Source: Planctomycetota bacterium
Lineage (GTDB): Bacteria; Planctomycetota; Brocadiia; SM23-32; JAKLEA01
Assembly (NCBI GenBank): GCA_022711755.1
Contig: JAKLEA010000002.1
Location: 325,214 to 389,213, forward strand
DNA: 64,000 nt
Reading direction: 5' to 3'
Shown: piece after piece, positions 30,108-60,055 of the stretch
How positions within the stretch are numbered: position 1 is the stretch's first letter
How the letters are laid out: each line of letters starts with the position of its first letter
Translations under genes and position numbers: made by a program
The notes under the pieces: generated by a model
Database searches by the model: none
What the model was told of the DNA's origin: nothing
Seen by the model: only the letters and a program-made list of their open reading frames with translations

Positions 30108-30206
30108 GGAATGCTCTCCACAGTTGAAAGGTTACAAGCGCGACGAGTCTGAGAGTTGATTAATGTTGCAGACAACCATGCAGCGCGCCGGCATTTGCAT
30201 ATCGGC

Positions 30207-34068: not shown

Positions 34069-34316
34069 CGAAACTCCACCATTCCGCATCTGTCGGGTAT
34101 CCATTGCGCGGGGCTGGACACGCCTATCTTCCATCCAACCCCTTGACGGATTTCGAGGACAAGCTCCTCGATGGTTAACAGCTTCTGAAGGAATCCAGCG
34201 TTCCATTTCTCCCGAGCGGATTTCAGGAGCGACGTGTCGCTGTATCCCGATGTGAAAACGATTGCCGTCCGTTCACTAATCGTATTCAATTGTCTGGCCA
34301 GGTCAAGCCCGCCCAT
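34065..34316 (-). pseudogene. Truncated response-regulator receiver fragment (C-terminal half only)
   Basis: MGGLDLARQL...IVFTSGYSD...AGFLQK...EELVLEI matches the receiver C-terminal half. All upstream frames are closed. Stop overlaps the start of the downstream hydrolase gene (ATGA). Confidence 0.4.
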
Positions 34317-34577: not shown

Positions 34578-34592
34578 TGGCATGATGATTGC
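34578..34592 (+). promoter_or_regulatory. Sigma54-type -24/-12 promoter (TGGCATG-atga-TTGCG)
   Basis: GG and GC elements at canonical spacing. Implies the kinase start is at ATG 34640 (RBS GAGGCGGG), not 34589. Confidence 0.5.
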
Positions 34593-36775: not shown

Positions 36776-37221
36776 AAGAAGCTGCGTCGTGCAGGAAGGT
36801 TGAAATCCTTCTCGTCGAGGATAATCCCGGGGACGTCAGGCTGACCCAGGAGGCCTTGAAGGAGGGCAGGATAAGCAATCGTTTGAGCGTGGTTGAGGAC
36901 GGCGCCGAGGCGATGGACTTTCTCAGGAAGAAAGGCAAATTCGCGGGCGCGCCAACGCCGGACCTGATCCTGCTTGACCTTAATCTGCCGCGCAAGGACG
37001 GGCGGGAGGTGCTGGCGGAGGTCAAGGAGGACCGGGAACTCAGGCGCATACCCGTGGTCGTGCTTACGACGTCCAAGGCCGAGGAGGACATAATACGCTC
37101 CTACGACCTTCACGCAAATTGCTACATCACAAAGCCCGTGGACTTCGAGCAGTTCATCAATGTCGTCCGGTGCATCGAGGATTTCTGGCTGGCGATAGTG
37201 AAGCTGCCAGGCGCGATCTAA
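36772..37221 (+). CDS. Single-domain response regulator (receiver)
   Basis: [13 protein letters not shown]...[14 protein letters not shown]...VVVLTTS...KP. Start overlaps the kinase stop (ATGA). Confidence 0.85.
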
Positions 37222-37287
37222 CCGGGATGACGCGCATGAAACCATAACGCGCGAGGCTGGGAGCGTCGGCTGGTCTCCAAGAAGAGG

Positions 37288-40152: not shown

Positions 40153-40201
40153 ACATCACAGACTGACATCGCGCCACAACAGGAACATTGAAAAAACAAG
40201 C

Positions 40202-43240: not shown

Positions 43241-44623
43241 TCAACCCTCGTCCGATTCGTCGTCTTCGTCCCTGGCAACCCCGTAGTCCCGCAGGCGGCG
43301 TCGCAGTGTGCGGATGGAAATGCCCAGCGCTTCCGCGGTCTTTTCTCGCCTGCCCCCGAATCCCTGAAGCGTTCGCAAAATGTAGGCTTTTTCCAGCTCA
43401 TCAAGCGTGGGCTTGGATTTCAGCATTTCCTCGACGCTGCTTTCGGAGGACTGTAGGCCTGAGAGGTCCCTGGGGGCTATCGCTTTTCCCTTGCAAAGGA
43501 GCGCGGCGCGGTCAATGACGTGCAGCAGTTCCCGGACGTTTCCGGGCCAGGGATGCTCCTCAAGCGCGCGCATCGCCTCCGGCTCAATGTCCGCGATTGA
43601 CTTGTTGTATCTTGCCGCCGATTCGCGCAGGAAATGAAGGGCCAGCAACCGCGTGTCGCCCTTTCTATCCCGGAGGGGGGGTATGGAGACAGTCAGCGTA
43701 TTGAGCCTGAAGTACAGGTCCCTGCGGAAACGGTCTTCGCGGATGGCCTGCATGAGGTCGCGGTTGGTCGCCGCAATGATCCTGGCTTCGGTATGTCTCA
43801 ATTGCGCGCTGCCGACCCTTCGGAAGTCGCCCGTTTCCAGAACGCGCAGGAGCTTGCCCTGGATGAGAGGGGACATGTCCCCGATCTCGTCAAGCATGAG
43901 GCTGCCGCCGCTTGCCGCTTCCAGCAGGCCGCCCCGGTCGTCCATGGCGCCGGTGAACGCGCCCTTTTCGTAGCCGAAGAGTTCGCTCTCGAAGAGGCTT
44001 TCCTGCATGGCCGTGCAGTTGATCGGCAGAAAGGGGCCGGCGGCGGCGCGGCTGCGCGCGTGGATGAGGCGGGCCAGCAGCTCCTTGCCCGTTCCCGTCT
44101 CCCCGAGAAGCAGGACGGGCGAGTCGGACGCCGCGACGCTCTCCGCCAGCTCAATTGTTTCACGCATCGCCGGGTCCTGCGTGACGATCTCCGGCGCGCC
44201 CAGACTGCCGGAGGACGCGGCGCGAAGGGCCGTGTTCTCATCGGCCAGGGAGGCCAGTTTCGCCGCCCTGAGCGCGAGCATGAGCAGCTTCTCGGTGTCG
44301 AAGGGCTTTTCCAGGAAATCGAAGGCCCCGTGCCGCATTGCGGCGACGGCGTTGGAGATCGTCGCGTGCGCCGTCAGGATGATGAATTCTGTATTCTTGT
44401 GCTTGTCGCGGGTGGTTCGCAGGAATTCCATGCCGTTCATGCCCGGCATGGACAGGTCAAGCACGACGACGTCGAACCGGCGCTTCTCCATCCGCTCCGC
44501 GGCATGGTCTGCGGACGACGCCTCTGCCACCCTTGCGCCGCCGTCCTCCAGCGTCCGCCGCACAATCTCGCGAATCGCCTCGTCATCATCAACCACCAGA
44601 ACGTTTGCCGTGGGTCGCCCCAT
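43241..44623 (-). CDS. Sigma54-dependent response regulator (NtrC family: receiver, AAA+ sigma54 activator, Fis-type HTH)
   Basis: Receiver ANVLVVDDDEAIREI. Walker A GETGTGKE. GAFTGA motif ESELFGYEKGAFTGA. C-terminal HTH. RBS GGGAGGA before ATG 44623. Confidence 0.85.
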   Translation of the reverse strand: MGRPTANVLVVDDDEAIREIVRRTLEDGGARVAEASSADHAAERMEKRRFDVVVLDLSMPGMNGMEFLRTTRDKHKNTEFIILTAHATISNAVAAMRHGAFDFLEKPFDTEKLLMLALRAAKLASLADENTALRAASSGSLGAPEIVTQDPAMRETIELAESVAASDSPVLLLGETGTGKELLARLIHARSRAAAGPFLPINCTAMQESLFESELFGYEKGAFTGAMDDRGGLLEAASGGSLMLDEIGDMSPLIQGKLLRVLETGDFRRVGSAQLRHTEARIIAATNRDLMQAIREDRFRRDLYFRLNTLTVSIPPLRDRKGDTRLLALHFLRESAARYNKSIADIEPEAMRALEEHPWPGNVRELLHVIDRAALLCKGKAIAPRDLSGLQSSESSVEEMLKSKPTLDELEKAYILRTLQGFGGRREKTAEALGISIRTLRRRLRDYGVARDEDDESDEG

Positions 44624-44678
44624 GATGCTGTCCTCCCGGCCATGCGTAACTGATGGGCGCAACCGCGCGCCCCCCTGT

Positions 44679-45770
44679 TTAGTCGCTTTCGCTCTTTGAT
44701 CCCGTTTCCGCTGCCGGCAGTTCGACTGAGAACTCCATCGTTTGCCCTGCGCAACGGAGCGCGACGCTTCCTCCGGATTCCGTCAGGATTAGTCGCAACG
44801 ACTCAAGGGATTCCGTGAATCCGGCCCCGGTATCGCAAGCTCGACCGTCTTTGACGCCGGCCTTGAAAACCGCGCATGCTCCTGACTCCGAGCGTCTGAG
44901 GGAAATCGTAATCTCGCCAACAACTTCCGGAGGAACGGTTTTCTCGCACGCATCCAGCGCGCGAAGAAAGGCGTGGAGAAGGAGATGTTCATGGCCATGA
45001 ACCGCCGCGGATTCTTCCCCGTTTTCCAGGCGAAGCTCGAATCGTTTTCTTCTCAGGATGTAGCTTCTGAGCCTTATCGCCTTTTCAATGATGACTCGAA
45101 GATCGAACGTTAACGCTTCGGGCGGATTTGCGGGAGCCAGGGACCGCATGGCGGAGCAAAGTTCAACGGCCTTGTCGGTCTGCTCCTCAACGCGCGCCAG
45201 ATCGCGCCGGGCGTTGTCATCCGTAATGCGGCGACGCAGCAGGCCGGCGAAACCTTTCACACCCGTCAGGTGATTGCGCATTTCGTGCGCCACGCCGGGG
45301 AGAACCTCGGCTGCCATCATCCCGCATGACGCGGCGGCATCCTCCTGCGCGGGCGCGTCCGCAAGAATCAGAATATGATCTCCGACCGGAAGGAGTAGGA
45401 GAGCGTCCATGCCGGATGAGCGATGCGTGTTACAAAGATTTATATCGGGGGCGGGTGCGTCATCGCGGCGGAAGATTACGGGGTCGTTCGCAGTGATCGC
45501 TGTAATGGCTTTTTCGATCCCTGGGATTATTTCCCCGATTGCCGCCGTCTCATCCCCCGGCTTTATTGCGAAGGCGCTCAACGCGGAGCGGCTGGCCGCC
45601 AGAATGCCCCCGGAGCGATCCACAAGCAACGCGGGGCGTCGCATGGCTTGGACTGCCCGCTTCGCGTCATCTTCGCCTTCACGCAGGAAATGGATCATGG
45701 TTCTGTATGCCGCCCCAGGAATCGAGAAACGATGAAACTCAGGCGAGGGCGTCTTTAAAAAAAGCTTCAT
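44679..45770 (-). CDS. Sensor histidine kinase (NtrB-like partner of the sigma54 activator)
   Basis: H-box GVAHEMRNHLTGVKGFAGLL. C-terminal ATPase domain. Immediately upstream of the NtrC-like gene. Start MKLFLK assumed. Confidence 0.7.
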   Translation of the reverse strand: MKLFLKTPSPEFHRFSIPGAAYRTMIHFLREGEDDAKRAVQAMRRPALLVDRSGGILAASRSALSAFAIKPGDETAAIGEIIPGIEKAITAITANDPVIFRRDDAPAPDINLCNTHRSSGMDALLLLPVGDHILILADAPAQEDAAASCGMMAAEVLPGVAHEMRNHLTGVKGFAGLLRRRITDDNARRDLARVEEQTDKAVELCSAMRSLAPANPPEALTFDLRVIIEKAIRLRSYILRRKRFELRLENGEESAAVHGHEHLLLHAFLRALDACEKTVPPEVVGEITISLRRSESGACAVFKAGVKDGRACDTGAGFTESLESLRLILTESGGSVALRCAGQTMEFSVELPAAETGSKSESD

Positions 45771-45851
45771 AAGAATAGCACGCGCATGAAGCGCTGCGCA
45801 AGCTCGGCTCTCCATTGGCAATATGCGAGTTTTGGCAGTGAGGAATTTGGT

Positions 45852-48836
45852 TTATCCGGACGACTTTGAGGCGACCGGCTCATCGGCCTCCTCATGCGCC
45901 ACGCGCAGCCTGGTATCGCTTGCCCCGGCCTCGCAACCGCGCCCGACGTTGTCCTCTCTTATCTGCGCGCGGGTTTCGCATACGCTGCAGCTTATCCAGT
46001 CGTAGCCTCGTTCGATCCTGTATTCCAACTGCTGGGCGCTGAAAGTCGCGCCGCATTCAGCGCAGTTGAGCGGGCGATAGAACTCCAGCTTGTCAACGCA
46101 GGAGCGATGCTTCAGGTGTCTGTAGATGAAGCGTTCAAGCTCCAGGCGCGCCGCGCGGTCAATCTTGAGGTCGAAGTTAAGCTTCAGTTCCGCCGAGTCC
46201 TCTTCAAGGCGGGTCAGGTGAATCCTGAAAGGCGCCTCCTTTTCGTCGTGAAAGCACGCCTCGTTGCTCCAGACCTCGCCCAGGGAAAGACCTTTCTGCC
46301 GGCTGAGTCGCGCAATCAGACGGGCGTAGACGCTTGTCACTGCTCCTCCGAACCTGATAACCAGGGACGATTTCGGTTCCTGCGGCTTGTCGGGAAGCTC
46401 CGCGCCGAACCTTGAAGGGACTATCAGCAGCGGCCCCATATCCGAAGGCTCGCGGATCGCAATTCCGTGCAGGAGAAGTTCTTCCACCGTGCCGACAAGC
46501 ATCAGGCGCTCCTGATCAAGGTTGGCTATGCGTTTGTTTTCAGGAATGCCGAATTCTCCCGTCCGGGCGGTCTTTTCTTCGATTAAGGCAAGTCCGTCAG
46601 GCTCTCCAGACGCCGCTTCAACGATCATGCCGGCATAGTCATAGAACATTGCCGGGCGGGTCAGGAGCAGATCGCCGTAAGCGAATCTGCGGATGATGCC
46701 GCGTGTTTCCGCCAGTTCGATGCAGAACTCAAAGAGGGTCTTCAGGCTTTCAGGCCGCTCCCGCCAGAGACTCCGCGCCTTCTCGACGGCAAGCTCCGTG
46801 TCCGAGGGCTTGTCCTCGACGCGCCTGGCGCCGCCGCGAAGCATTGTCGCGCCGAGGAGGGAGGAGCCTGCGGCCTGTTCCTTCGCCCGGCATACCCAGA
46901 TCGGCGGCAGGGCCGCATCCAGCGGCGTCAGGTGGTAAGCCTCGGTTTTCTGGCGCTCAGTCGGTTCCTCACGCTGAGTCATTTCGCCCTTCAACCGGTC
47001 AGTGAAGGCGATCAATTTCCCGCGCAAACGCTCTCCGAACACGCCCGCCGATGAAGGTTCGGCTGTTCCCTGCTTATCCTCGGCGGCGAGACGGTCCATG
47101 AAGTTTGTGATGAACTTCTTCCGGGTATTGATCACGCGCCCGTCGTCGCGCCATTCGCGGACGTAGTCTGCGATCATCTGAACAAGGTGGGGGCTGCTTA
47201 CCGAGGGGATTTCGTCCCAGTCAATAGCCGTGCGAACGGCGTCAGCAAGGTCGCTGATCTTGTCGCCGGTTCTGGCGCTGCATTCGATGACCGGTCCGAT
47301 GCCGAGTTCCCTGCGCAGCTTGTCCGTGATCCTGCTGCTCACTTTTGAAGGGCCGAGGTCGGATTTGTTCGCGGCGAGGATTATCTTCAAGGAGGAAATG
47401 TCGCGCCCGCAGGCCTTGCATGCAGACTCCAGCATGCGATACCAGCGGCGTACGCCGGCCATCCGGTTGGTTTCCCGGCGCCCGTCGTAGACAATGATCG
47501 CCGCTGACGCTCCGGTCATCTGAAGGCTTCCGGCTGCGCGATTCACCGGGTTGTCATGAATGTCCCAGAGCAGTGTTTCGCGCCAGGCCTGCTGTCCGGC
47601 CTGGGTTTCGAGATTCACCCTCTCCATGAGCCTGATGTCGGCGAGGCCATCGCCGCGGGGCGGCTGTGCCTGACTGCCGCAAAGCGCATTGACCAGGGCG
47701 GTCTTGCCGCTTCCTGAATCGCCTAGGACCAACGCCTTGGCGTTGGCGTAATGGATGTCGCTCAGATGCGGAGGGATAAGCCATTCATCATCCAGTTTCC
47801 ATATTCTGACGCATAGGTTCTGCTCGCCAAGCGTGGCAAGGGCGGGCAGCCTCGGGTGAAACTCCAGTCCGGGGGGACAGAAACGCCCGACGCTCTCCTC
47901 CAGGGCTGCGACCGCCTCCCACGTGTCCGCGCGCCAGATGCGTATCGAACCGTCATTGGACTTTGACGCCATCATTCGCCCGTCGGATGAGAAGCTCAGG
48001 CTTGTGACAGCGCCGGAATGGGCCTTGAAAATCATTTTACGAACAATGCAGGGATTGGAGTGTTCGGCATGCGCGCCTGCAGTGGATGGTTGGATTTGAC
48101 CTGTCGTGGTGTCATTGCCGGATTCGGATGACGCCGAACGGGTGGAATCGGTAATCAGAACGTCCCATCCACCGAGGGTCCATATCTCAATCGCGCCTTC
48201 CTCGGTTCCGACTGCAAAGAAACTCTCATCTGGAGCGATACGCAGGCTCTTAACCTCGCGCTTTTCCTCCTGGAACGTCCAGAGCAGCCTGCTGTTCTCC
48301 GCGTCCCAGAGGCTTATCCTGCTGTCCTCAGAGATTGACGCCAGGCCGCGCCCGGAAGACGTCCAGGAGACAAAAAAGACGCCAGCCTTGCCGCTGGGCA
48401 GCTTGCAGAGACAATCCTCAGATTCCGCGTCCCAGAGCCTGATCGTTCCATCTCCCGACGCTGTTGCAATGACGGAGCCGTCCGGCGACCAACTGACGCA
48501 GTTGACGGGGCCGATGTGTCCCTTCAGGACGCGAACCTCCCGCCCGGTCACGGCATCCCACACGCGGGCCGTTCCATCCCATGAAGCCGACACAATCCTG
48601 CGCGAGTCCGGGGACCAGGCAAGTCCGAACACCACGTCCGTGTGGCCGCTGAGCGTCCTGAGCGCCTGCCCGGCTTTCACGTCCCAGACTCGCAGTGTCC
48701 TGTCGTATGAGGAACTGGCCAGGCAGCATCCGTCCGGGGACCAAGCCACGCGCGCTATATCCGACCTGTGCCCGGTGAACGAATGAAGCAGTTTCAGGCC
48801 TCTTGGCGTTTCCTTGCGGGCCTTCTTTGCGTCCAT
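45852..48836 (-). CDS. WD40-repeat / Ras-like (Roc) GTPase / COR-like / C-terminal zinc-ribbon multidomain protein
   Basis: About 300 aa of WD40 repeats (GHxxxV...WSPDG...WD). G-domain with GDSGSGKT (G1), NKSD (G4), CSAR (G5). About 400-aa COR-like region. C-terminal CAECG...CSVC. Confidence 0.65.
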   Translation of the reverse strand: MDAKKARKETPRGLKLLHSFTGHRSDIARVAWSPDGCCLASSSYDRTLRVWDVKAGQALRTLSGHTDVVFGLAWSPDSRRIVSASWDGTARVWDAVTGREVRVLKGHIGPVNCVSWSPDGSVIATASGDGTIRLWDAESEDCLCKLPSGKAGVFFVSWTSSGRGLASISEDSRISLWDAENSRLLWTFQEEKREVKSLRIAPDESFFAVGTEEGAIEIWTLGGWDVLITDSTRSASSESGNDTTTGQIQPSTAGAHAEHSNPCIVRKMIFKAHSGAVTSLSFSSDGRMMASKSNDGSIRIWRADTWEAVAALEESVGRFCPPGLEFHPRLPALATLGEQNLCVRIWKLDDEWLIPPHLSDIHYANAKALVLGDSGSGKTALVNALCGSQAQPPRGDGLADIRLMERVNLETQAGQQAWRETLLWDIHDNPVNRAAGSLQMTGASAAIIVYDGRRETNRMAGVRRWYRMLESACKACGRDISSLKIILAANKSDLGPSKVSSRITDKLRRELGIGPVIECSARTGDKISDLADAVRTAIDWDEIPSVSSPHLVQMIADYVREWRDDGRVINTRKKFITNFMDRLAAEDKQGTAEPSSAGVFGERLRGKLIAFTDRLKGEMTQREEPTERQKTEAYHLTPLDAALPPIWVCRAKEQAAGSSLLGATMLRGGARRVEDKPSDTELAVEKARSLWRERPESLKTLFEFCIELAETRGIIRRFAYGDLLLTRPAMFYDYAGMIVEAASGEPDGLALIEEKTARTGEFGIPENKRIANLDQERLMLVGTVEELLLHGIAIREPSDMGPLLIVPSRFGAELPDKPQEPKSSLVIRFGGAVTSVYARLIARLSRQKGLSLGEVWSNEACFHDEKEAPFRIHLTRLEEDSAELKLNFDLKIDRAARLELERFIYRHLKHRSCVDKLEFYRPLNCAECGATFSAQQLEYRIERGYDWISCSVCETRAQIREDNVGRGCEAGASDTRLRVAHEEADEPVASKSSG

Positions 48837-49056: not shown

Positions 49057-50679
49057 TCACTTGACGGCGATGTGTCTTTGCTGATTTCCATGCGCTGCCG
49101 AGGCCGCGCCGGGGTTGTGCGAAATCTCGAATCCAATCTTGCCGACGCCTATTCGCCTGACCGCCTCGACCATCGTCCAGGGGGCCAGGCGCTGTCCGTC
49201 AACCGTAGTGCCGTTCAGGCTTCCGCAGTCCTGCACGAAGATCGTGTCCCCGGCGCGGCGCACCGTGCAATGGCAGGAGCTGGTGCCGGCGTCCTCGATG
49301 ACGATCTGGCACGATCCCCTGTCCCGCCCGATGGTGAATTCCTCGCCGTCTCTTATCGGGGCGGAGAACTTCCCGGAGTCGTTGCGGCGGGCGATCAGCG
49401 TGATCGGGTTGGAGAACGCGGCCCCCTCCTCCCCGCGCGCCGCGGGGGGGATGACGGCGTTCCGGTTGAACCAGACGCGGAACGCGCCGCGCTCCCTGGC
49501 CGGGACCGGCGATATCTCGGCGTCCTCGTAGAGGCAGGCCTGTGTCTCAGGTTCGGTCCTGCTGCAACGCCGGGCCTCCTGCCGCTTCCCGTCCGCCCGT
49601 TTATCCGGAATCTGGTGTTTCGCGGACGACCGCTCCTGCTGCTCCTGTGACTCGCGGCGTTCCTTGTTTGGATCGGCGCGAAGGCCGGCGTAAGCCTTCC
49701 TGAGATCATCCAGAAGCTCGTTATATGTCTGATATCGCGATTCCGGCTCGCGGGCTGTCATGCGGCGGATGATTACGTTGGTCAGCGGCGAAACGTCCGG
49801 CGTGAGCATCCTCACGAGGGGAACCGGCTTGCACAGCCGAGCGGCCAGCACCTCCGCGACGCTGCCGGTGAATGGCGGCGCCCCCGTCAGCATGTGAAAG
49901 GCGGTCATGCCCAGGGAGCAGATGTCGGAGCGCGCGTCAAGCTCCCGGTCTCCGCGCACGCGCTCCGGAGAAAGATAGGCCGGAGTTCCGATCATCGTCA
50001 GGCCTTCGTTGAGGGTCGTCGTGTCCTCTGCCGGATCAGGCTCGGCCTGCAACAGTCCGGTCCTGTGAGCCAGAGCGAAGTCGGTCAATTTAACCGCGTG
50101 CTGCCTTGTGAAAAGTATGTTTGATGGTTTAATGTTGCCGTGGGTGATTCCAGAGATGTCTGCGTCGCCCAGCGCGTCAACTGCCGCTATCAGCACGCTT
50201 AATGCGAGCCTTTCACCCAGACGTCCGCGTTTTGCAATGATTTTCTCCATTGAGATGCCGTCCACCAGCTCCATCGCAACGTAATGACACTTCCCTGCGC
50301 GACCGGCGGAGTGGCAGCGGACGATGCCGCAGTGCTTAAGACTTATCGCTTTTTGAGCGCTGAGCGTGAACCGGCGGGAAAAGGCAGTATCGGCAATCGG
50401 GCATAGGTCTATTGTCTTGACCGCCACGGTCTTTCCATCGTCAATCTGCATCGCCTTGTAGATTTTCGTTCCGGGACCGCTGCCGATTTCAGAAATCAAC
50501 TGGTAACCCGGGATTGCAGGGAGCAGTTTGCGTTCAAGGATGGCTTCAATGTCCGGAGTCATGCGGGCGGCGGCGGCCCGGCTCAGGTCAATCCCCACAT
50601 CAAGGGGGAATTCGTTGAAATGCCCAGTCGAAAACGCCGGCGCGCTTCTTTTTCCAGTCTGAGTCAGTTCGCTCTTCAT
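49057..50679 (-). CDS. eSTK-like pseudokinase with C-terminal FHA domain
   Basis: G-loop GSGPGTKIY, VAVK, catalytic loop THGNIKPSNIL (HRD Asp replaced by Gly-Asn), DFA, SPE. FHA at the C-terminus (TIGRD...SSCHC...NGT). RBS GGGGAGAGA before ATG 50679. Confidence 0.7.
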   Translation of the reverse strand: MKSELTQTGKRSAPAFSTGHFNEFPLDVGIDLSRAAAARMTPDIEAILERKLLPAIPGYQLISEIGSGPGTKIYKAMQIDDGKTVAVKTIDLCPIADTAFSRRFTLSAQKAISLKHCGIVRCHSAGRAGKCHYVAMELVDGISMEKIIAKRGRLGERLALSVLIAAVDALGDADISGITHGNIKPSNILFTRQHAVKLTDFALAHRTGLLQAEPDPAEDTTTLNEGLTMIGTPAYLSPERVRGDRELDARSDICSLGMTAFHMLTGAPPFTGSVAEVLAARLCKPVPLVRMLTPDVSPLTNVIIRRMTAREPESRYQTYNELLDDLRKAYAGLRADPNKERRESQEQQERSSAKHQIPDKRADGKRQEARRCSRTEPETQACLYEDAEISPVPARERGAFRVWFNRNAVIPPAARGEEGAAFSNPITLIARRNDSGKFSAPIRDGEEFTIGRDRGSCQIVIEDAGTSSCHCTVRRAGDTIFVQDCGSLNGTTVDGQRLAPWTMVEAVRRIGVGKIGFEISHNPGAASAAHGNQQRHIAVK

Positions 50680-50740
50680 CACGTTCTCTCCCCAAATTTC
50701 GGCCTGGCTTGCCGCACAAGGCACTCGGTATCATCAGCAA

Positions 50741-50756
50741 ATGCAAAGCTGATGCC
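50741..50756 (-). promoter_or_regulatory. Sigma54-type -24/-12 promoter candidate (cGGCATc-agct-TTGCA)
   Basis: GG/GC spacing canonical. About 45 nt upstream of the pseudokinase-FHA start. Confidence 0.4.
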
Positions 50757-51094
50757 GAAACCGGCTTTCAATAATAAAGACAATATTCTTATATGATGAC
50801 TCTACATAACCTATTTCTAGTCAATGGATTACGACGTCGGAGAAAAATCTTGTCAAGTGGGATGACGGGACAAGATTCAGAATGCAGAATGCGCGCGGAC
50901 ATCCTACCGGTCATTTTGTCCCCCGGCGGGGACTATTCTGCCCGATGCGATGGGGGGGGAAGCGATACCGAACGGTTCGATGGCGGGAGGCTGATTCCGG
51001 ACGGGTAGGAAATGAGCCGGGCCCCGGTCGAGAGGCGAAGCGACGCGGGACCCGGACTCGCGGGGACAACCTTATATTTACGCCTGTCGCGCAG

Positions 51095-52153
51095 TCAGCT
51101 TGTGACGGCGGCTATGCGCGATGCGGAGGACTTGAAGCCTTCAATGCGCCGGGATAACTCCTTCAAGGCGGAGAGCGCCTTCGGATTGCCCGGTTCGCAG
51201 GCCAGGGCGGACTCCAGCGCCTCCATTGCCGCGCAATACCGGCGTTCCATAACCAGTTCGGCGGCCGATTTCAGCAGTTCATCAACGCTTGCGGCGGAGG
51301 TGGCGGCGTCCGCTGCTTCCCGGTCTTGCGACTCGCCGGGTGGAACCGGGGGATTCAGGTATTGTTCAAGTTCCGGAATCCCGCCCGGGGGGGCCGCGGT
51401 GTCGAGCTGCGTGGTTGGCTCACTGAGTTCGGGAAGTCTGGAGTCTGCAGTCGTTTCCTCAATGCCGATTTCTGACTGCGACTCCTCCGGAACATCAACG
51501 CTGAGGTTGATCTTCGCCGGATTTGAGAAGTCCTTGAACTCAACCTCGAAATCTCCGGAGTTCCAGTCAAGCAACTCGACCGCCGCGTCCAGGGGGAGCA
51601 TCCCGTCAAGCTCGGCGTCAATGATCTCTGAGTCGCGCAGGTAAAGCCTGCCGCTTCGATCCTCCCGGCGCAGGCAGATGGCGCAGCTCTGTCCGGAGCG
51701 GCAGATGACCTTGACCAGGCTCGTGGTCGGCAGGTCCTCAAGGCGGCCTCGGAATGCCTCGGAACGCCCGGCCTGAGCCATGGAGCGGTCAATAGTCATC
51801 TTCGCCCGGACGACAAGCTCGCGCGGATCAACCGGCTTGGGGAGATAGTCCGTGCATCCCATTTCCAGACCCTTGAGCCTGTCCTGAAGCGCGGAACGCT
51901 CCGTCAGGAAGAGGAAAGGAATGCCGGCGGTCTCGTCATCAAGCTGAAGCTCTCCGAAGAGCTGAAAGCCGTCCATCTCCGGCATGTTGACATCCGAGAT
52001 GATGAGGTCGGGCTTGACGATTTTCAGCTTTTGCAGCGCGTCTCGCCCGTTGCGCGCCAGTACCGCTCTGAATCCTGAGTTTTCGAAGCTGCGGGACAAC
52101 AGCCGCAGCAGTATCTCGTCGTCGTCAACCAGAAGTATTATTCCCTTTATCAT
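51095..52153 (-). CDS. Response regulator: receiver plus C-terminal domain of unknown function (DUF4388-like?) plus TPR-like tail
   Basis: MIKGIILLVDDDE...DLIISDVNMPEMDG...FLFLTERS receiver. The domain assignment for the C-terminal region is from memory only. AGGAGG RBS. Start overlaps the upstream kinase stop (ATGA). Confidence 0.7.
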   Translation of the reverse strand: MIKGIILLVDDDEILLRLLSRSFENSGFRAVLARNGRDALQKLKIVKPDLIISDVNMPEMDGFQLFGELQLDDETAGIPFLFLTERSALQDRLKGLEMGCTDYLPKPVDPRELVVRAKMTIDRSMAQAGRSEAFRGRLEDLPTTSLVKVICRSGQSCAICLRREDRSGRLYLRDSEIIDAELDGMLPLDAAVELLDWNSGDFEVEFKDFSNPAKINLSVDVPEESQSEIGIEETTADSRLPELSEPTTQLDTAAPPGGIPELEQYLNPPVPPGESQDREAADAATSAASVDELLKSAAELVMERRYCAAMEALESALACEPGNPKALSALKELSRRIEGFKSSASRIAAVTS

Positions 52154-53436
52154 CTCGACGCCTCCTGAAAAGTTGTTGTGGTTTCCTCTTTGAAACAGCG
52201 TTTCCGGATCATGCGCCTGACCGGAAGACCGTCCATCGTCCGGAGTGTGCCCAGGGCGGCCTCGATATCGGTAAGGCATTCGCGCATGTCCGTGAAGCCT
52301 TCCCCCGGATTGGAAGCAGTCATCTTCTTGAGCAGTTCGGCGGTTCGCGGCGTGACGCTGACGCCGAATTCAGAAAGTTTCGGCAGGCCGAGGTGTTCCA
52401 GTTCCCAAAGGACTTTCTTCGGGTCCGGCGCGTAGGGCATTCTGCCTGCCAGCATTGAGAAAAGGAGGATGCCAAGCGCGTGCATGTCGTCCGCAAAGCC
52501 GGGGACATCCAATTCCTTCAGCAGTCGCCGGCTCAGGTATTCCACCCCCGACGCATGGCGCGCCTTCTGCCCCGGAAGAATCCTGCCGGCTGCCTGCAAA
52601 AGGCCGGAGGGCGGGGCTGACCAGTCAATGCTCATGATCCTGCCGGTTACGCCGATCAGGATGTTCTCGGTTTTTATGCCGCCATGCGGCAGGCCGCGCT
52701 TATGCCCTTCCAGAACTCCCAGCGCGACCTGCCTGAGCAACTCCATGGCCGTGCGTTCGGAGAGTTTCCTGCGCCTTCGCAGAAGCACGTCAAGCGTTAT
52801 GCCGTGCTCGTATTCCTCCAGGATCATGACGCAATGCCTTACGCGGGCGAATTGCGTCACCCGCGCCGCGCAGGGATGAGCCATATTCGCATGGACCCTG
52901 TCGGCCTTGTCCAGCGCAAGCTCGACATCCCTCTGATCGGCCAGTCGCCGGACGTCTATCACCTTCAGGCGCCGGGCCACGTTTCCGCCATTGCCGGCGA
53001 CCCTGTAGGACGATCCCAGCGCGCCTTCGCCCAGTTTGTAGTCAACACGGTATTTATGCGTTCCGTCGCCAACCTGCTCCGGATGCTGCTCGATTTTTCC
53101 GGGAGCGCCGGGTGCGTTGGTCATGCTCCCTTCGACAACGTCAGATAGGAAGCGCTGGAAGAACATCGTGCCGTCATCCGGATCAGCGTTGCCGTTTGTC
53201 AGGTTGCCGAACTGCTCGATCGTTGACGCGATCTCCGACCTGCTGACGTAGCCGCGGCGCACCGCGATCGCCACCGGATCGGCGGGGCAGCCCAGGCTGG
53301 TCATGACATCGGCGTCCTTCCTGCATTCGCGGAAATGCTCCGGATCGCAGAGGACCTGGAGGGCCTTCAGTTGCACGGAAGATCGGAATCCGCTGCTTCC
53401 TGACGAACTTCGGATTTTGTTTTTGTCGTCGCTCAT
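52150..53436 (-). CDS. eSTK-like pseudokinase (degenerate catalytic motifs) with N-terminal domain of about 130 aa
   Basis: G-loop GEGALGSSY, RRLKV, catalytic loop PHGGIKTENILI (HRD replaced by HGG), IDW in place of DFG. Start overlaps the stop of the upstream HK (TAATG). Confidence 0.6.
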   Translation of the reverse strand: MSDDKNKIRSSSGSSGFRSSVQLKALQVLCDPEHFRECRKDADVMTSLGCPADPVAIAVRRGYVSRSEIASTIEQFGNLTNGNADPDDGTMFFQRFLSDVVEGSMTNAPGAPGKIEQHPEQVGDGTHKYRVDYKLGEGALGSSYRVAGNGGNVARRLKVIDVRRLADQRDVELALDKADRVHANMAHPCAARVTQFARVRHCVMILEEYEHGITLDVLLRRRRKLSERTAMELLRQVALGVLEGHKRGLPHGGIKTENILIGVTGRIMSIDWSAPPSGLLQAAGRILPGQKARHASGVEYLSRRLLKELDVPGFADDMHALGILLFSMLAGRMPYAPDPKKVLWELEHLGLPKLSEFGVSVTPRTAELLKKMTASNPGEGFTDMRECLTDIEAALGTLRTMDGLPVRRMIRKRCFKEETTTTFQEASR

Positions 53437-56400
53437 TATTTGTCTCCCGATGATGCGTAGATGGGAGGTCTGGATGCGTCAGCCCCAATGACGCCGCAGA
53501 CGGCTCCGAGAAGTTTTTCCGCAATCTGATCAACGTCGTCCGCGCCCGACTTGCAGGCGCGCTCCAGGCCGCCGCCGAGACGCCCTATCTCGGCGTAACC
53601 GAAAGTGCCCGCTGTTCCCTTAAGATCGTGCCCGATTTTCTGAAGGGCCGGCCTGTTCCCGGCGGAAAGCGCCCTGCCCAGGTCAACGGCGTCGCGATTC
53701 AAGCGTCTCAGGTATTCCTCTCTGAGTTCTTCGATGCACGCCTGGAAGCTGTCTTCCTCAGGCTTGTCAATTCCTGTCTCCTGTTCCTGCGTTTTTTGTG
53801 ATTCCGCGAGGGCTTTCCCGCGTTTTATGACAAGATTGCTTATGCAATCCCGCAAGGCCGCCCGATCCAGCGGCTTGGCGAGGTATGCGTCGCATCCGGC
53901 TGCCAGGCATTCCTCCTGATCGCCCTTCATCGCGGCGGCCGTCAGCGCGACTATGGGAAGGTTCCTGAACCTGGCGTCCTCCCTGATGTTGCGGGCGGTC
54001 TGGTATCCGTCCATGACCGGCATGCGCATGTCAAGAAGCACAAGGTCGTAATCGCCCTGGTCAAGGGCGGAGATGCACAGCGCGCCGTTGTCAACAATGT
54101 CGGCCCTGTGTCCCTCCTTCTCCAGCGCCTTGCGAATGAGCTTCTGGTTGGTCGGGTTATCCTCTGCGACGAGCACGCGCAGGCCGTTTCCGGATGCCGG
54201 AGGACAGGCTGCCGCGTCCTTGCCGGCGGCAGCGGGGCGGGCATCTCGCGCAGACTCGCCCGGGATCACCCATCGGCTGCAGATTTCCGCGATCCTGTCG
54301 CGGGGCAGGCCGTTGGCAGCCGCGTAGTCCATCAATTCGGCGGTCAGGCGCTTTGACTCCTCCGGGGTCATTTCCTCCTCTGCATTGACCACGACGCGGA
54401 CGGAGTCCAGCAGATTGCGTTCGGAAAGGTTCTGAATTAGCTTCAGTCCTTCGCTGTGAACGTTGCGCACGGACATCAGCACCGCGCCGGGGCGATAGCC
54501 GCGCTCAATCTCGGTCATCAGGTCGCTTGCCGACGCGAAGTTCCGGTGACCGTTGTGTTTGTCCTCTTCGCGCTCCGGTTCGTTTGAGAGCACGGCCACC
54601 TCGGCAACGGGATTTTCCTTCAGGACCTCAAGCACCCTCCGGCGCAGGACGCGGATGCCGCCGGCCTTTGGGATGCACTCCACCGCGCCGAGCAGTCCGG
54701 CCCTGCGCTGGTCGGCCACCACGGAGCAGACGATGACGGGTATGTCGCTCAGTTCGGGATCGGCCTTCAGGTCGCGCAGGATGTCCCACCCGTTGCGCCC
54801 CGGCAGCAGTATGTCCAGTATGATTGCGCACGGCCTGAGCCTGCGCGCTTCCGCTATCGCCGCGCCGCCGTCGGGGCAGCCGACAACCGAGACGCCGCTT
54901 CGCGCAAAGGCCGAGCGGTAGAGCTTCAGGCAGGTTGCGTCGTCCTCGACCGCCAGGACGACGCCGCGCTCGCCGGCGGGCGCCCTAGCGGATTCCGTGT
55001 TGTGCCGCGCCATGCCCGGGGCATGATCTTCATCCGGCTCTTCCCGCGCCTGAAGCGAGACTCCGGCAGGCAGGCGGAAAGAGAATACGCTTCCTTCTCC
55101 CAGACGGCTTTCGACGCTGATGCAGCCCCCCATGGCCTCGATGGTCCTGCGGCAGATGGCAAGCCCCAGGCCGGTTCCGCCGAATCTGCTGGCGATGGAG
55201 GCGTCGGCCTGGTTGAACGGGTCGAAGATCTTCTCCATTGCTTCCGGGGCTATGCCGATGCCCTGATCCCGCACGGCGAACCTGATAGAATCCCGTCCAG
55301 CATCGTTGGTCTCGACCGAGCAGCTCATGACGATCCTGCCCCGCCGGGTGAACTTGACGGCGTTACCCATCAGGTTGGTAAGAACCTGGCGGATTCGAAG
55401 CGGATCGCCGGCAAGCTCACGCGGAACGTCCGGGGATATCTCGCAGACAAGTTCAAGCCCCTTCTCGGAAGCCGTCGGGACGAAGGTTTTCATCGTTTCC
55501 TGCGCAAGTGTCCACGGATCATAGGGCTTCCTCTCGAAAACCATCGCGCCGGACTCGACCTTGCTCAGGTCAAGTATGTCGTTGATGAGCGCCAGGAGCG
55601 TTTTGCCGCTTGAGCGTATAGTCTCCACGGCGTCTCGCTGGTCGTCGGTCAGGATGTCGTCCATGAGCATGTCGGCAAAGCCCATGATGCCGTTAAGAGG
55701 CGTTCTTATCTCATGGCTCATGTTGGCCAGGAAACGGCTTTTGGTTGAGTTTGCGGCCTCGGCCGCCGCCTTGGCCCTGAGGAGTTCAAGCCTGGCCTTC
55801 GCCTGTTCCGTGACGTCCTCGACCATCTCAATGGCGGCGATGATGTTTCCGGCGGTGTCGGTTATTGGGCTGGAGACGATCTTGTAGTGCCTGATCTCGT
55901 CGCCGTTCGGGGTGTTTGTCGTGGCCTCGTGGAGTTTCCCGTCGGCCAGCGTCAGCGCAGTCGGGCAGTAGGAGCATCGTTCATCGCGGGCCGGACTGTT
56001 GAATGCGCGGTAGCAGGTCGGGCATTCCCGGGCGTCAACGTTCGGGAACCACTTCTGCATCTGCTTGTTCAGCGAGAGTATCCGCATGTCGGCGCTGATG
56101 ACGGCCACCCCGACCCCGATATTGTCAACGACGTTTCGATATTTCTGTTCCGACTCGCGAATGGCTTCTTCAGCCTGCTTTTGAGCGCTTATGTCCCGTA
56201 CGGTAGCCTGCAGAAAGGTCTGGCCGTTCAATTCCACCCTCGTCAGCAGCACGGTGGCGGGGAAAACGCGCCCGTCAAGGCGCATATGCGCCCATTCGAA
56301 GAAATGCGCCCCGTCCCGCATCGCCGTTCCGATCATCTCCGCCGCCTTTTCGGAGGAGGCTCGTCCGTCCGGTTGGAATTCCGGCGACAATTCCCACGGG

Positions 56401-57758
56401 CCTTTCGAGACGAATTCCTCTTCGTCTGCGGCGCCGAAAAGCTCCACGCAAGACGGATTTCCTGAAGCGAATCTCCATGACGGCGGGGCGAGGGTCATGA
56501 TCGCGTCGCGCGAGGACTCAAATAGCGTCTTGTAGAGTTTTCTGCTTTCATTCAACGCATCTTCAGCTTGTTTTCGATTTCGGATGTCAACAAAGCTTTC
56601 AATCAGGCACTCCCGATCCCCGAGATTCGTCTTTACCACGCTCTTGATTACGGGAATCTCCCGACTCTGCGCGTCGAGGATTACTCGTTCGGAGTTCTCA
56701 ACCGTCCTGCCGAGATCGGTGATCGGGCACTTGCCGCATTCGGCGGGGCATATGTGCTTATGGCATATCTGGCCGACTATTTCGCTCTTTGGCGCTCCTA
56801 TCATCCCGATTGCGACGGGATTGACCTCCAGTACCACATGTGTCTCGGCGTCAACAATTGCAATGCCGGTAGGCAACGATTCCAGGATGCCGTTGAGCCT
56901 TTGGTTGTATTCAATAAGTTTGGTTTCCGCTTCGCGGCGTCGGGTGATGTCTTCACCGGAGGCCAGCACCGCTTTGATCCGGCCGTCCGCATCGCGGACG
57001 GCGGTATTGTGCCAGAATATGAGTTTCTCCTCTCCTTGCCGCGTAAGAATGACGTTCTCGCATTCCTCCACCCATCCCGAATCGCCATTCAGGATGCCTT
57101 TGAAGATTTCTCTGACTTCCTCCCTCACGCGCATGGGAAGACAGGTCTCAAACCAGTCTTTGCCGATCAGTTCGGCGGCGGCATAACCCATAAGCTCGTG
57201 TCCCTTCCGGTTGATCATTGCGATCTTCCCGTCAAGGTCCAGGGCCAGGAGTATCACCCCGGCAACATCAAGGTATCCTGCGGAGACGTCGTGTTGTTCC
57301 TTGAGCGCCTGTTCCGCCGTTATCGTCTCCGTAATGTCCTCGATGACGTGAAGCCAAAGGTTGCCGCATGGGGCGTTCTTGTTCGTTTTTGAGCACTTGA
57401 CGCGGAAGAATCTGCCGGGGAGCAACTCCTGACAGGCGACAGAAAAGTCCTCCCCGTTCGCCATGCTGCGGCACGCGTCGCAAAGTTCCGGCGGCCTGTC
57501 CGAGCAGTGGACGACCTCGTAGCATTTACGTCCGATCACGTCCTGCGGTTTACGAGATATCATTCCGCAAAAGCCCTGGTTGCAATCCAGGATGTTCTGC
57601 CCCGGATCCATGAGGAACGCCGGGAAGGGAAGCCCCTCCAACGTCAGCCTGCCCGCCGCCTTGACGCTTTGATTTTCCACTTTCTCGCCTCTTGGGTTGT
57701 CTGTTTTATCAGGGCGCGCCCCGCGCGCGCCCTGTTGAGCGTTCGACTTGATATGCAA
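53436..57758 (-). CDS. Cytoplasmic hybrid histidine kinase (Cys-motif PAS, about 6 PAS domains, HisKA, HATPase, REC, REC, Hpt)
   Basis: HisKA LANMSHEIRTPLNGIMGF. HATPase GTGLGLAICRRTIEAMGGCISVES. Two receivers (VVLAVEDD...; RVLVAEDNPTNQ...LLDMRMPVMDG). Hpt HDLKGTAGTFGYAEIG. True start probably downstream of 57758 (GTG 57680 or ATG 57611), because a sigma54 element lies at 57763-57777. Confidence 0.85.
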   Translation of the reverse strand: MHIKSNAQQGARGARPDKTDNPRGEKVENQSVKAAGRLTLEGLPFPAFLMDPGQNILDCNQGFCGMISRKPQDVIGRKCYEVVHCSDRPPELCDACRSMANGEDFSVACQELLPGRFFRVKCSKTNKNAPCGNLWLHVIEDITETITAEQALKEQHDVSAGYLDVAGVILLALDLDGKIAMINRKGHELMGYAAAELIGKDWFETCLPMRVREEVREIFKGILNGDSGWVEECENVILTRQGEEKLIFWHNTAVRDADGRIKAVLASGEDITRRREAETKLIEYNQRLNGILESLPTGIAIVDAETHVVLEVNPVAIGMIGAPKSEIVGQICHKHICPAECGKCPITDLGRTVENSERVILDAQSREIPVIKSVVKTNLGDRECLIESFVDIRNRKQAEDALNESRKLYKTLFESSRDAIMTLAPPSWRFASGNPSCVELFGAADEEEFVSKGPWELSPEFQPDGRASSEKAAEMIGTAMRDGAHFFEWAHMRLDGRVFPATVLLTRVELNGQTFLQATVRDISAQKQAEEAIRESEQKYRNVVDNIGVGVAVISADMRILSLNKQMQKWFPNVDARECPTCYRAFNSPARDERCSYCPTALTLADGKLHEATTNTPNGDEIRHYKIVSSPITDTAGNIIAAIEMVEDVTEQAKARLELLRAKAAAEAANSTKSRFLANMSHEIRTPLNGIMGFADMLMDDILTDDQRDAVETIRSSGKTLLALINDILDLSKVESGAMVFERKPYDPWTLAQETMKTFVPTASEKGLELVCEISPDVPRELAGDPLRIRQVLTNLMGNAVKFTRRGRIVMSCSVETNDAGRDSIRFAVRDQGIGIAPEAMEKIFDPFNQADASIASRFGGTGLGLAICRRTIEAMGGCISVESRLGEGSVFSFRLPAGVSLQAREEPDEDHAPGMARHNTESARAPAGERGVVLAVEDDATCLKLYRSAFARSGVSVVGCPDGGAAIAEARRLRPCAIILDILLPGRNGWDILRDLKADPELSDIPVIVCSVVADQRRAGLLGAVECIPKAGGIRVLRRRVLEVLKENPVAEVAVLSNEPEREEDKHNGHRNFASASDLMTEIERGYRPGAVLMSVRNVHSEGLKLIQNLSERNLLDSVRVVVNAEEEMTPEESKRLTAELMDYAAANGLPRDRIAEICSRWVIPGESARDARPAAAGKDAAACPPASGNGLRVLVAEDNPTNQKLIRKALEKEGHRADIVDNGALCISALDQGDYDLVLLDMRMPVMDGYQTARNIREDARFRNLPIVALTAAAMKGDQEECLAAGCDAYLAKPLDRAALRDCISNLVIKRGKALAESQKTQEQETGIDKPEEDSFQACIEELREEYLRRLNRDAVDLGRALSAGNRPALQKIGHDLKGTAGTFGYAEIGRLGGGLERACKSGADDVDQIAEKLLGAVCGVIGADASRPPIYASSGDK
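57707..57731 (-). promoter_or_regulatory. Perfect 10-bp GC-rich inverted repeat with 5-nt loop (CAGGGCGCGC-cccgc-GCGCGCCCTG) in the predicted 5' leader of the Hpt-HK operon
   Basis: Seen directly in the sequence. Lies +20 to +45 relative to the TSS predicted from the sigma54 element. Confidence 0.5.
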
Positions 57759-57762
57759 ATAC

Positions 57763-57777
57763 GCAAGAGACGTGCCA
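57763..57777 (-). promoter_or_regulatory. Sigma54-type -24/-12 promoter (TGGCACG-tctc-TTGCG)
   Basis: Matches the TGGCACG-N4-TTGCW consensus on the minus strand. Sits upstream of the HK-pseudokinase-REC operon. Confidence 0.55.
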
Positions 57778-59974: not shown

Positions 59975-60040
59975 CTTCCTTACCCCTGTTCCTGTCCGCC
60001 ATGAACGAATGAGAATGAATGAACTCTGCGGGAATGGAAC

Positions 60041-60055
60041 GCAACTGCCGTGCCA
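60041..60055 (-). promoter_or_regulatory. Sigma54-type -24/-12 promoter (TGGCACG-gcag-TTGCG)
   Basis: Consensus match about 65 nt upstream of the STK-FHA start. The leader carries four UUCAU repeats (60001-60024). Confidence 0.55.

Follow-up and report, generated by a model that had tools for sequence, protein, structure and literature searches.

A catalytically degenerate Hanks-type kinase-fold gene and its REC-PATAN neighbour in a Planctomycetota signalling locus

Results

Genes of the locus

The 64,000-nucleotide stretch of contig JAKLEA010000002.1 from a Planctomycetota bacterium (hereafter the window, to which all coordinates refer unless another locus is named) carries three genes of the Hanks-type kinase fold, which we labelled K1, K2 and K3, and a response regulator adjoining K2, labelled RR. 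All are on the minus strand, where the order of transcription is K3, a hybrid histidine kinase, K2, RR, K1, a WD40-Roc protein, a histidine kinase and an NtrC-type activator. K2 (HOX37985.1; 52150-53436) encodes 428 amino acids (aa) with an N-terminal helical domain and a Hanks-fold domain (Pfam Pkinase, 66.6 bits). RR (HOX37984.1; 51095-52153) has a REC domain (51806-52138, aa 6-116; Pfam E-value 3.3e-26) that is followed, not preceded, by a PATAN/DUF4388 domain (51497-51748, aa 136-219; 6.2e-10) and a helical tail. K1 (P0019; 49057-50679; 540 aa) has a degenerate kinase domain (49675-50505; Pkinase, 106.9 bits) and a C-terminal FHA domain (49174-49335; 2.1e-13); its open reading frame spans 49057-50724, and the likely start is the ATG at 50679 with GGGGAGAG directly upstream. 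K3 (58085-59974) is a Ser/Thr kinase with a C-terminal FHA domain (Pkinase, 182 bits; FHA, E-value 1.9e-11), a catalytic loop reading HRDIKPHN and a DLG motif. The hybrid histidine kinase (53436-57758; four PAS domains, HisKA, HATPase_c, two REC domains and Hpt by Pfam) is 1414-1440 aa long, gene callers placing its start at GTG 57680 (1414 aa).

The hybrid kinase opens a three-gene operon with K2 and RR. Its stop codon TAA shares one nucleotide with the ATG of K2 (aaaTAATGagc), and the stop of K2 overlaps the ATG of RR by four nucleotides (ATGA). Both overlaps, as described in an earlier note on this DNA, are real; the stoichiometric co-expression which that note read from them does not follow from a 4-nt overlap. 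K2 and RR each have their own Shine-Dalgarno-like sequence, GGGAG or AGGAGG, before the start. K1 is a separate transcription unit, with a gap of 415 bp to RR upstream. The 16.7-kb locus is 100% identical across three independent assemblies (ENA, Logan and JGI), and the unusual catalytic loops described below are consequently not a sequencing or assembly artefact, a possibility which the earlier note had raised.

Motifs and fold of K2

The kinase-fold domain of K2 (52237-53061, aa 126-400) carries a Gly loop (GEGALG) and the beta3 Lys158. Its catalytic loop reads HGGIKTEN (LPHGGIKTENIL; 52663-52686), and the motif equivalent to DFG is DWS within SIDWSAP (52618-52626). In the HMMER alignment to PknB and StkP, Gly stands at the position of the catalytic Asp, and the beta3 Lys (K158), loop Asn (N258) and DFG Asp (D271) are still present. 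An Ala occupies the alphaC Glu position with no Glu in register, and the APE Glu and the subdomain XI Arg are lost. At the last two positions, YLSRR (52525-52548, aa 297-304) has Arg for the APE Glu, and PGEGF (about 52290-52310, aa about 376-382) has Gly for the Arg with a Glu beside it. Judged from the sequence, these changes might amount to an exchange of charges within the salt bridge that Glu and Arg usually form; PE and R are kept in other members of the K2 clade.

Both K1 and K2 score above the Pfam gathering cut-off for Pkinase (PF00069), which is 31.7 bits. The AlphaFold2 model of K2 has a predicted local distance difference test score (pLDDT) of 70.8 overall and of 75-95 in the kinase domain, and its best Foldseek matches are PknB, PknA and Stk1 (template modelling score about 0.75-0.83, normalised to the target). 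The model thus predicts, with confidence, a bilobal Hanks-type kinase fold for K2. The operational definition of a pseudokinase is the loss of at least one of the VAIK Lys, the HRD Asp and the DFG Asp (10.1101/2025.01.12.632604). K1 and K2 both fall within it, the HRD Asp being gone in each.

Pfam assigns to K2 only kinase-fold families (Pkinase, PK_Tyr_Ser-Thr and Kdo), and neither Pfam nor NCBIfam has a specific family for K2 or for its N-terminus. The NCBI name of K2, 'lipopolysaccharide kinase InaA family protein', looks like a misnomer that rests on a borderline Kdo match (21.5 bits against a cut-off of 21.3). We did not retain K2 as a Kdo/WaaP or InaA-type kinase, its best sequence and fold matches being Hanks kinases. 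A defence-system reading was likewise discarded: the PADLOC matches (PD-T4-6, mad6 and PglW) are generic kinase-domain matches.

The K2 clade

An exhaustive phmmer search with K2 against 1.84 billion representatives returned no protein above 35% identity. The best full-length matches have three independent characters in common with K2, namely the N-terminal domain, the signatures HG[NG]xKxxN and D-[WCTL]-[SG]-x-P, and the absent alphaC Glu. The N-terminal helical domain of the clade has about 60 residues and a conserved RGY[VC][TS] turn; P0140, which together with P0336 represents the closest relative of K2, is without that domain. The form D-W-[SA]-x-P is common to K2, P0140, P0143 and HOX38338, the last being a paralogue with 28% identity to K2. 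In a six-row alignment of the family, K158, H251, G252, K255, N258, D271 and D317 are invariant. The only invariant Asp residues are those of DFG and subdomain IX, so that no conserved acidic residue compensates for the lost one, and the alphaC Glu is absent in all clade rows inspected. What the clade conserves (Gly loop, beta3 Lys, loop Asn and DFG Asp) fits a pseudokinase in which nucleotide binding may persist.

Because all three assemblies of K2 are identical and offer no strain-level variation, we estimated the ratio of nonsynonymous to synonymous substitution rates (dN/dS) from the orthologue pair of the paralogue. For P0143 and HOX38338 it was about 0.11, and for their partner genes 0.15, with dS above 1. 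The K2 clade is thus under purifying selection. In tetranucleotide composition, the contigs of HOX38338 and of another member, P0259 (HOX40332), are as close to the window as one half of the window is to the other, and the accession numbers of HOX38338 and HOX40332 are in the same series as that of K2. The same genome therefore probably holds at least three members of the K2 clade in addition to K1.

A genome_contigs scan found only distant HRD/DMG relatives and no HG[NG] member. Word-indexed searches with K2 alone and with the K2-family alignment returned generic kinases only; neither K2 nor its family came up. The cause is the 90%-identity cluster of K2, whose representative is a 43-aa fragment, so that cluster-based searches overlook the protein. 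From these comparisons we read K2 as belonging to a small, conserved and undescribed family, a rare variant of the bacterial Hanks-type pseudokinase.

A conserved REC-PATAN neighbour

In three loci a gene of the K2 clade is directly followed by a gene that encodes a REC-like domain, a PATAN domain and a helical tail. These are the window, the locus of HOX38338 with its partner HOX38339 (L070), and the locus of P0143 with a truncated partner gene (L006). The PATAN/DUF4388 E-values are 6.2e-10 for RR, 3.2e-13 for HOX38339 and 7.7e-14 for the L006 partner. Across 107 loci, PATAN neighbours were found only beside the window copies and in L070 and L006, and the closest K2 relative, P0140/P0336, has none. 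The adjacency thus persists across a deep paralogous split (28% identity between K2 and HOX38338, 25% between RR and HOX38339) and across an orthologue divergence with dS above 1. We take this as evidence for a functional link between K2 and the REC-PATAN protein, as such persistence is hard to explain otherwise.

The receiver of RR is canonical, with DDD10-12, D54, T84 and K106. HOX38339 (L070, 9201-10184) has a degenerate receiver with Ala at the phospho-acceptor site, and the L006 partner (1398-2102) keeps the phospho-acceptor Asp without the conserved Thr and Lys. By analogy with orphan PatA-type regulators, these two partners would be independent of phosphorylation. The L070 pair is separated by a 30-nt gap and has neither a histidine kinase upstream nor an adjoining FHA-kinase, and the gaps in the paralogous and orthologous pairs are 30-33 nt, the orthologous pair likewise lacking a histidine kinase upstream. 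Coupling of the pseudokinase into a two-component operon, as proposed in the earlier note, therefore describes the overlaps in the window correctly but does not extend to the related pairs. The histidine kinase link and the gene overlaps are specific to the window, and the simplest reading of the sequences is that a pre-existing pseudokinase-PATAN module was here attached to a phosphorelay.

Two further observations concern the partners of the clade. P0259 (HOX40332.1; L008, 8001-9760) is followed by a 116-aa STAS-domain protein of the anti-sigma-antagonist fold, not by a PATAN protein, which suggests that the K2 clade pairs with different small regulators. Fusions of a kinase with PATAN exist, P0316 among them, and are a weak Rosetta-stone hint.

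The N-terminal domain of K2

The N-terminal helical domain of K2 (53212-53379, aa 20-75) appears distantly like MshEN/GspE_N. We aligned a profile of K2-clade N-termini to a profile of the N-termini of Planctomycetota HRD/DMG kinases, and hhalign gave a probability of 96% with an E-value of 2.9e-9. Against the PDB, the HRD/DMG profile in turn matched PilF (1.5e-5), PilB (2.5e-4) and MshE (0.02), and a combined N-terminal profile matched PilF (2.7e-6) and MshE (1.2e-4). Fusions of MshEN with Ser/Thr kinases are on record (PMC5013675), the PATAN domain of PixE binds the N-terminal, MshEN/GspE_N-containing region of PilB1, and PATAN co-occurs with GspE_N (bioRxiv 10.1101/2021.06.11.447907). For these reasons we propose that the PATAN domain of RR may contact the N-terminus of K2.

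We also looked for the 24-residue motif of cyclic di-GMP (c-di-GMP) binding in its relaxed form, [RKPN]hGxxhhxx[GAS]hhxxxxhxxxhxx[QNKRYWST]. No member of the clade has a full match; 7-9 of the 11 constrained positions agree in the MshEN-like aligned stretch. Binding of c-di-GMP by this domain is consequently unsupported.

K1 and the FHA-kinases

The catalytic loop of K1 reads HGNIKPSN (ITHGNIKPSNIL; 50119-50142; codons CAC GGC AAC for its first three residues), with Asn replacing the catalytic Asp, and its DFG equivalent is DFA within TDFALA (50074-50082), in which the Asp is retained and Gly is changed to Ala. K1 aligns to PknB over 288 residues (E-value 1.4e-39). In the alignment to PknB and StkP, the VAVK Lys, N187 and D200 are kept, a Ser stands at the position of the PknB alphaC Glu (RFRREAQ) and the third Gly of the Gly loop is lost. 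K1 retains an activation-loop Thr cluster, an SPE motif and the subdomain XI Arg, and its FHA domain keeps the GR, SxxH and NG residues. Besides the kinase fold, Pfam found only FHA-type domains in K1. The description in the earlier note of loops without the catalytic Asp and with the downstream Asn and the VAIK Lys preserved is thereby borne out for both proteins, whereas 'degenerate' overstates the state of their DFG motifs: the Phe or Gly positions differ and the Asp is kept in both.

K1 is 100% identical to a protein that NCBI assigns to a Candidatus Brocadiia MAG; it has no known orthologue, and its best non-self match is 35% identical. With K3 it shares 37% identity over the kinase domain and 34% over the FHA region (E-value 4e-60), compared to only 26% with K2, and the Pkinase scores drop from 182 bits in K3 to 107 in K1 and 67 in K2. 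K3 is a paralogue of K1 and probably the active kinase of the island. K3 and P0020 (L004, 10001-11485) keep HRD and D[LM]G; at the position of PknB E59 K3 has Thr and P0020 has Ser, and as the alphaC Glu is absent in both, their activity should not be taken for granted. The alphaC Glu loss in K1, K2 and K3, as well as the conserved REC-PATAN adjacency, had been missed by the earlier note.

Separate origins of the HG[NG] loops

We built a neighbour-joining tree of 95 kinase domains in which the eight catalytic-loop columns were masked. K1 groups with P0020 and K3, both of which are HRD kinases, with a bootstrap of 0.80. K2 groups with P0140, P0143 and HOX38338 (0.91), then with P0259 (0.87), and then with both domains of each of the tandem proteins P0142 and P0146 (0.89), a clade in which 9 of 9 domains carry HG[NG]. 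The motif occurs in at least four separate clades of the tree sample, including a tandem clade with 100% support and two weaker groups, and it is rare: among the 120 matches to K1 listed, only K1 and one other domain carry it. The step from HRD to HG[NG] takes two single-base changes (CGC to GGC and GAC to AAC). As the tree separates K1 from K2 and only these two changes are needed, the shared loop is convergent, and we consider K1 and K2 to be catalytically impaired kinase-fold proteins of independent origin. The conserved pseudokinase family of the earlier note accordingly holds for the lineage of K2 and not for K1, whose closest homologues, K3 and P0020, show the very HRD which that note had named as telling against its proposal. 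In our reading K1 is a lineage-specific, degenerate relative of the canonical FHA-kinases K3 and P0020, a paralogue whose inactivation is recent, and it would most likely work through its intact FHA domain and through pairing with an active paralogue.

The tandem clade consists of the metagenomic proteins P0144, P0199, P0213, P0245 and P0037. They have HGG[IV]KPSN in the loop, LGDP[SA]LP for DFG and Arg for the beta3 Lys, and within each polypeptide a canonical HRD kinase domain directly follows the pseudokinase domain, an order that resembles the JH2-JH1 arrangement of JAK.

Surrounding genes and promoter-like sites

Directly downstream of K1 lies a gene for a 994-aa protein with WD40 repeats and a Roc/Ras-type GTPase domain (45852-48836, minus strand; Pfam WD40, Roc 4.4e-10 and Ras 1.2e-8). 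The WD40 propeller is N-terminal, and the C-terminal region is long, uncharacterised and contains Cys-rich motifs; WD40 with Roc is a Roco-like combination, here adjoining a kinase-fold gene. The same string of genes ends with the histidine kinase (44679-45821) and the NtrC-type sigma-54 activator (43241-44662), both assigned by Pfam on the minus strand. These two genes are candidate regulators of the sigma-54-like sites described below.

We searched the window with a sigma-54-type pattern, TGGCAC-N5-TTGCW (-24/-12), so that the sites are pattern matches only. Two sites have one mismatch each, both on the minus strand: TGGCACggcagTTGCG (60040-60055) precedes the ATG of K3 by about 66 nt, and TGGCACgtctcTTGCG (57762-57777) precedes the hybrid kinase GTG at 57680 by about 82 nt. 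A weaker one with two mismatches lies about 63 nt upstream of the K1 ATG (CGGCATcagctTTGCA; 50742-50757, minus strand). In the whole window 3 sites were found against 1.9 expected, which is not above chance; position and orientation are right in two of the three best matches. None was found upstream of the paralogues examined, and a scan for sigma-70 promoters and terminators inside the operon was uninformative.

Besides the three Hanks-fold genes, the window contains six histidine kinases, four of which are large hybrids rich in PAS and GAF domains (kinases in 19703-24691, 34589-43186, 43241-45821 and 53436-57758). Five of the six and all three Hanks-fold genes lie between 34.5 and 60 kb with no metabolic genes among them, forming a dense signalling island. 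Long minus-strand open reading frames of 821, 379, 565 and 391 aa (in 61389-63854, 28968-31904 and 33031-34206) have no Pfam match at an E-value of 1e-5 or below.

Discussion

Proposed role of K2 and K1

The reading we favour, and regard as somewhat better than an even prospect, is that K2 serves as a non-catalytic partner, either adaptor or allosteric switch, of the REC-PATAN regulator, and that K1 is an independently inactivated FHA-kinase. K2 probably binds nucleotide, going by its retained residues, and would lack efficient phosphotransfer; the contact between K2 and the regulator, and the direction in which it acts, are inferred from analogy. In this scheme phosphate from the hybrid kinase would travel over that protein's own REC and Hpt domains to reach D54 in the receiver of RR. 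Phosphorylation of RR might then alter how PATAN engages K2 through the MshEN-like domain of the latter, as suggested by the interaction of PATAN with PilB1. The kinase-fold surface of K2, nucleotide-bound and non-catalytic, could finally relay this state to the Ser/Thr-FHA layer, for which K3 and K1 are the obvious candidates by analogy with MviN-PknB-FhaA. A scaffold role for K2, as put forward in the earlier note, is plausible.

Several points weigh against this proposal. The retained Lys, Asn, DFG Asp and Gly loop are also expected of a weak or atypical kinase, and the pseudokinase model is drawn from sequence and predicted structure. The PATAN adjacency occurs in only two paralogous lineages (three loci), probably of one genus; P0259 adjoins a STAS protein, P0140 adjoins Kelch and dockerin proteins, and P0142 and P0146 adjoin unrelated genes. 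The family is tiny within 15 billion proteins, which makes the conservation statistics thin. K3 itself is without the alphaC Glu, so that an 'active partner' is an assumption. Lastly, the profile of K2-clade N-termini taken alone has no match in the PDB and none in Pfam, and the likeness to MshEN is transitive only.

Alternative explanations

A stronger version of the favoured proposal would have the K2 clade as a new module, in which REC-PATAN regulators have as their obligate partner a dead, nucleotide-binding pseudokinase, on whose MshEN-like domain PATAN docks as it does on PilB, or in which K2 performs a non-kinase, ATP-dependent chemistry on its partner; we hold this to be a tentative possibility and rather doubtful. 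That K1, K2 or both are still working kinases of non-canonical or low activity, acting on the regulator or on themselves with HG[NG] tuning instead of abolishing catalysis, seems unlikely to us, if deserving of attention. Both proteins do have the beta3 Lys, the loop Asn, the DFG Asp and a largely intact Gly loop, K1 also has its Thr cluster, SPE motif and subdomain XI Arg, and HER3 (HRN) and the JH2 domain of JAK2 (HGN) retain weak phosphotransfer. However, the HRD Asp and the alphaC Glu are missing together, and in K2 the position of the catalytic base is a Gly with no side chain, the family alignment offers no compensating acidic residue, and the APE Glu and subdomain XI Arg are gone as well. 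It is less probable still that K2 is a general regulator or decoy of active FHA-kinases, in the manner of the MviN-PknB-FhaA system, with the REC-PATAN adjacency being incidental operon packing. Four members of the K2 clade have no PATAN neighbour, FHA-kinases lie on both sides of the operon, and in that system PknB phosphorylates the pseudokinase MviN, to which an FHA protein is recruited (PMC12599244); on the other hand, the adjacency outlasts both the paralogous split and an orthologue divergence with dS above 1, and the L070 pair has no adjoining FHA-kinase at all.

The remaining two explanations concern descent and decay. Placing K1 and K2 in one HG[NG]IK pseudokinase family by descent, as the earlier note did, strikes us as improbable. 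The two loops hardly differ, HGN[ILV]KP[ST]N is also found in several further Planctomycetota proteins, and P0185, in which an HGN/DFA domain precedes FHA as in K1, joins the K2 clade weakly (bootstrap 0.38-0.46). Nevertheless, K1 is closer to the HRD kinase K3 than to K2 and groups with it when the loop is masked, two marks of the K2 clade, its N-terminal domain and the D-W-[SA]-x-P signature, are missing from K1, and HG[NG] has appeared in at least four clades at the cost of two base changes. Least credible of all, in our judgement, is that K1 and K2 are functionless, decaying relics of kinase duplications. The fall in Pkinase scores from K3 through K1 to K2 and the lack of a known K1 orthologue, with a best non-self match of 35%, would fit such decay; against it, neither reading frame is broken in any of the three assemblies, purifying selection acts on the K2 clade, which has invariant core residues and a confident fold prediction, and K1 keeps every structural motif together with its FHA domain.

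Significance

Bacterial Hanks-type pseudokinases are a young field: a 2025 atlas and a review list seven families, and partners are known for almost none of them. The K2 clade would be a class of another kind, in which Lys and the DFG Asp are kept and the catalytic Asp and alphaC Glu are lost, and it brings a conserved genomic partner, REC-PATAN, which makes for a concrete and testable interaction. Were the new-module reading true, it would mean that in Planctomycetota the Ser/Thr-FHA network is hard-wired to His-Asp phosphorelays. The ease with which HRD becomes HG[NG] is a warning against inferring a family from a shared degraded motif. With an uncultured source organism and so rare a family, only specialists in signalling stand to be affected in the near term.

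Comparison with known systems

Among receiver-linked pseudokinases, DivL of Caulobacter, a pseudokinase of the histidine-kinase type, reportedly senses whether the response regulator DivK is phosphorylated. In both DivL and our proposal for K2, a dead kinase is the sensor or adaptor for a response regulator and couples two pathways, but the fold of DivL is that of a histidine kinase, not a Hanks kinase, and there is no sequence relationship. HER3 (HRN) and the JH2 domain of JAK (HGN) have the catalytic Asp replaced by Asn, retain nucleotide binding and act as allosteric partners of an active paralogue. K1 beside its paralogue K3 would follow the same logic; the likeness is convergent, with no homology beyond the kinase superfamily, and the context here is bacterial, with FHA, MshEN-like and two-component partners.

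The PatA-type regulators PixE, PixG and PatA resemble RR in that PATAN is the output module of a receiver protein, and their orphan members work without phosphorylation, which may be compared with HOX38339. Their order is PATAN-REC, in contrast to the REC-PATAN-helical tail of RR, and the partner proposed here is a pseudokinase and not the pilus ATPase PilB1; there are no pilus genes in the window. The MshEN-kinase fusions (PMC5013675) have a helical domain of the MshEN type ahead of a Hanks kinase, an arrangement that K2 may share, and the Planctomycetota HRD/DMG kinases with that N-terminus are the nearest canonical relatives of the K2 clade. They differ in that the c-di-GMP motif is unmet in the K2 clade and the kinase domain of K2 is catalytically degraded.

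In Mycobacterium tuberculosis, MviN is a phospho-dependent pseudokinase docking platform that works with the active Hanks kinase PknB and the FHA reader FhaA (PMC12599244), and K2 is similarly flanked by the FHA-kinases K3 and K1. MviN, however, sits in the membrane as a fusion with a flippase, and all three of its motifs are degraded, whereas K2 is a soluble protein that retains Lys and the DFG Asp and comes paired with a response regulator.

Seven families of bacterial Ser/Thr pseudokinases have been described, namely ActPs1, ActPs2, ActPs3/MviN, GLW, CP1, DYD and DLHK (10.1101/2025.01.12.632604; PMC12599244). A search of a literature library for pseudokinases and Planctomycetes returned nothing relevant, and neither the atlas preprint (10.1101/2025.01.12.632604) nor the review (PMC12599244) mentions Planctomycetes. 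The K2 clade is like these families in its Hanks fold, degraded catalytic triad, family-level conservation and presumed non-catalytic, regulatory role. Their descriptions nevertheless set them apart: the VAIK Lys is substituted in all seven, that is in every member of five families, in 34% of CP1 and in 60% of DYD (10.1101/2025.01.12.632604), and all members of CP1 have a COG3899 domain, which Pfam did not find in K1 or K2. In the K2 clade K158 is invariant and the DFG Asp is likewise retained, and only the HRD Asp and the alphaC Glu are gone; by its sequence motifs the clade is matched to none of the seven described families.

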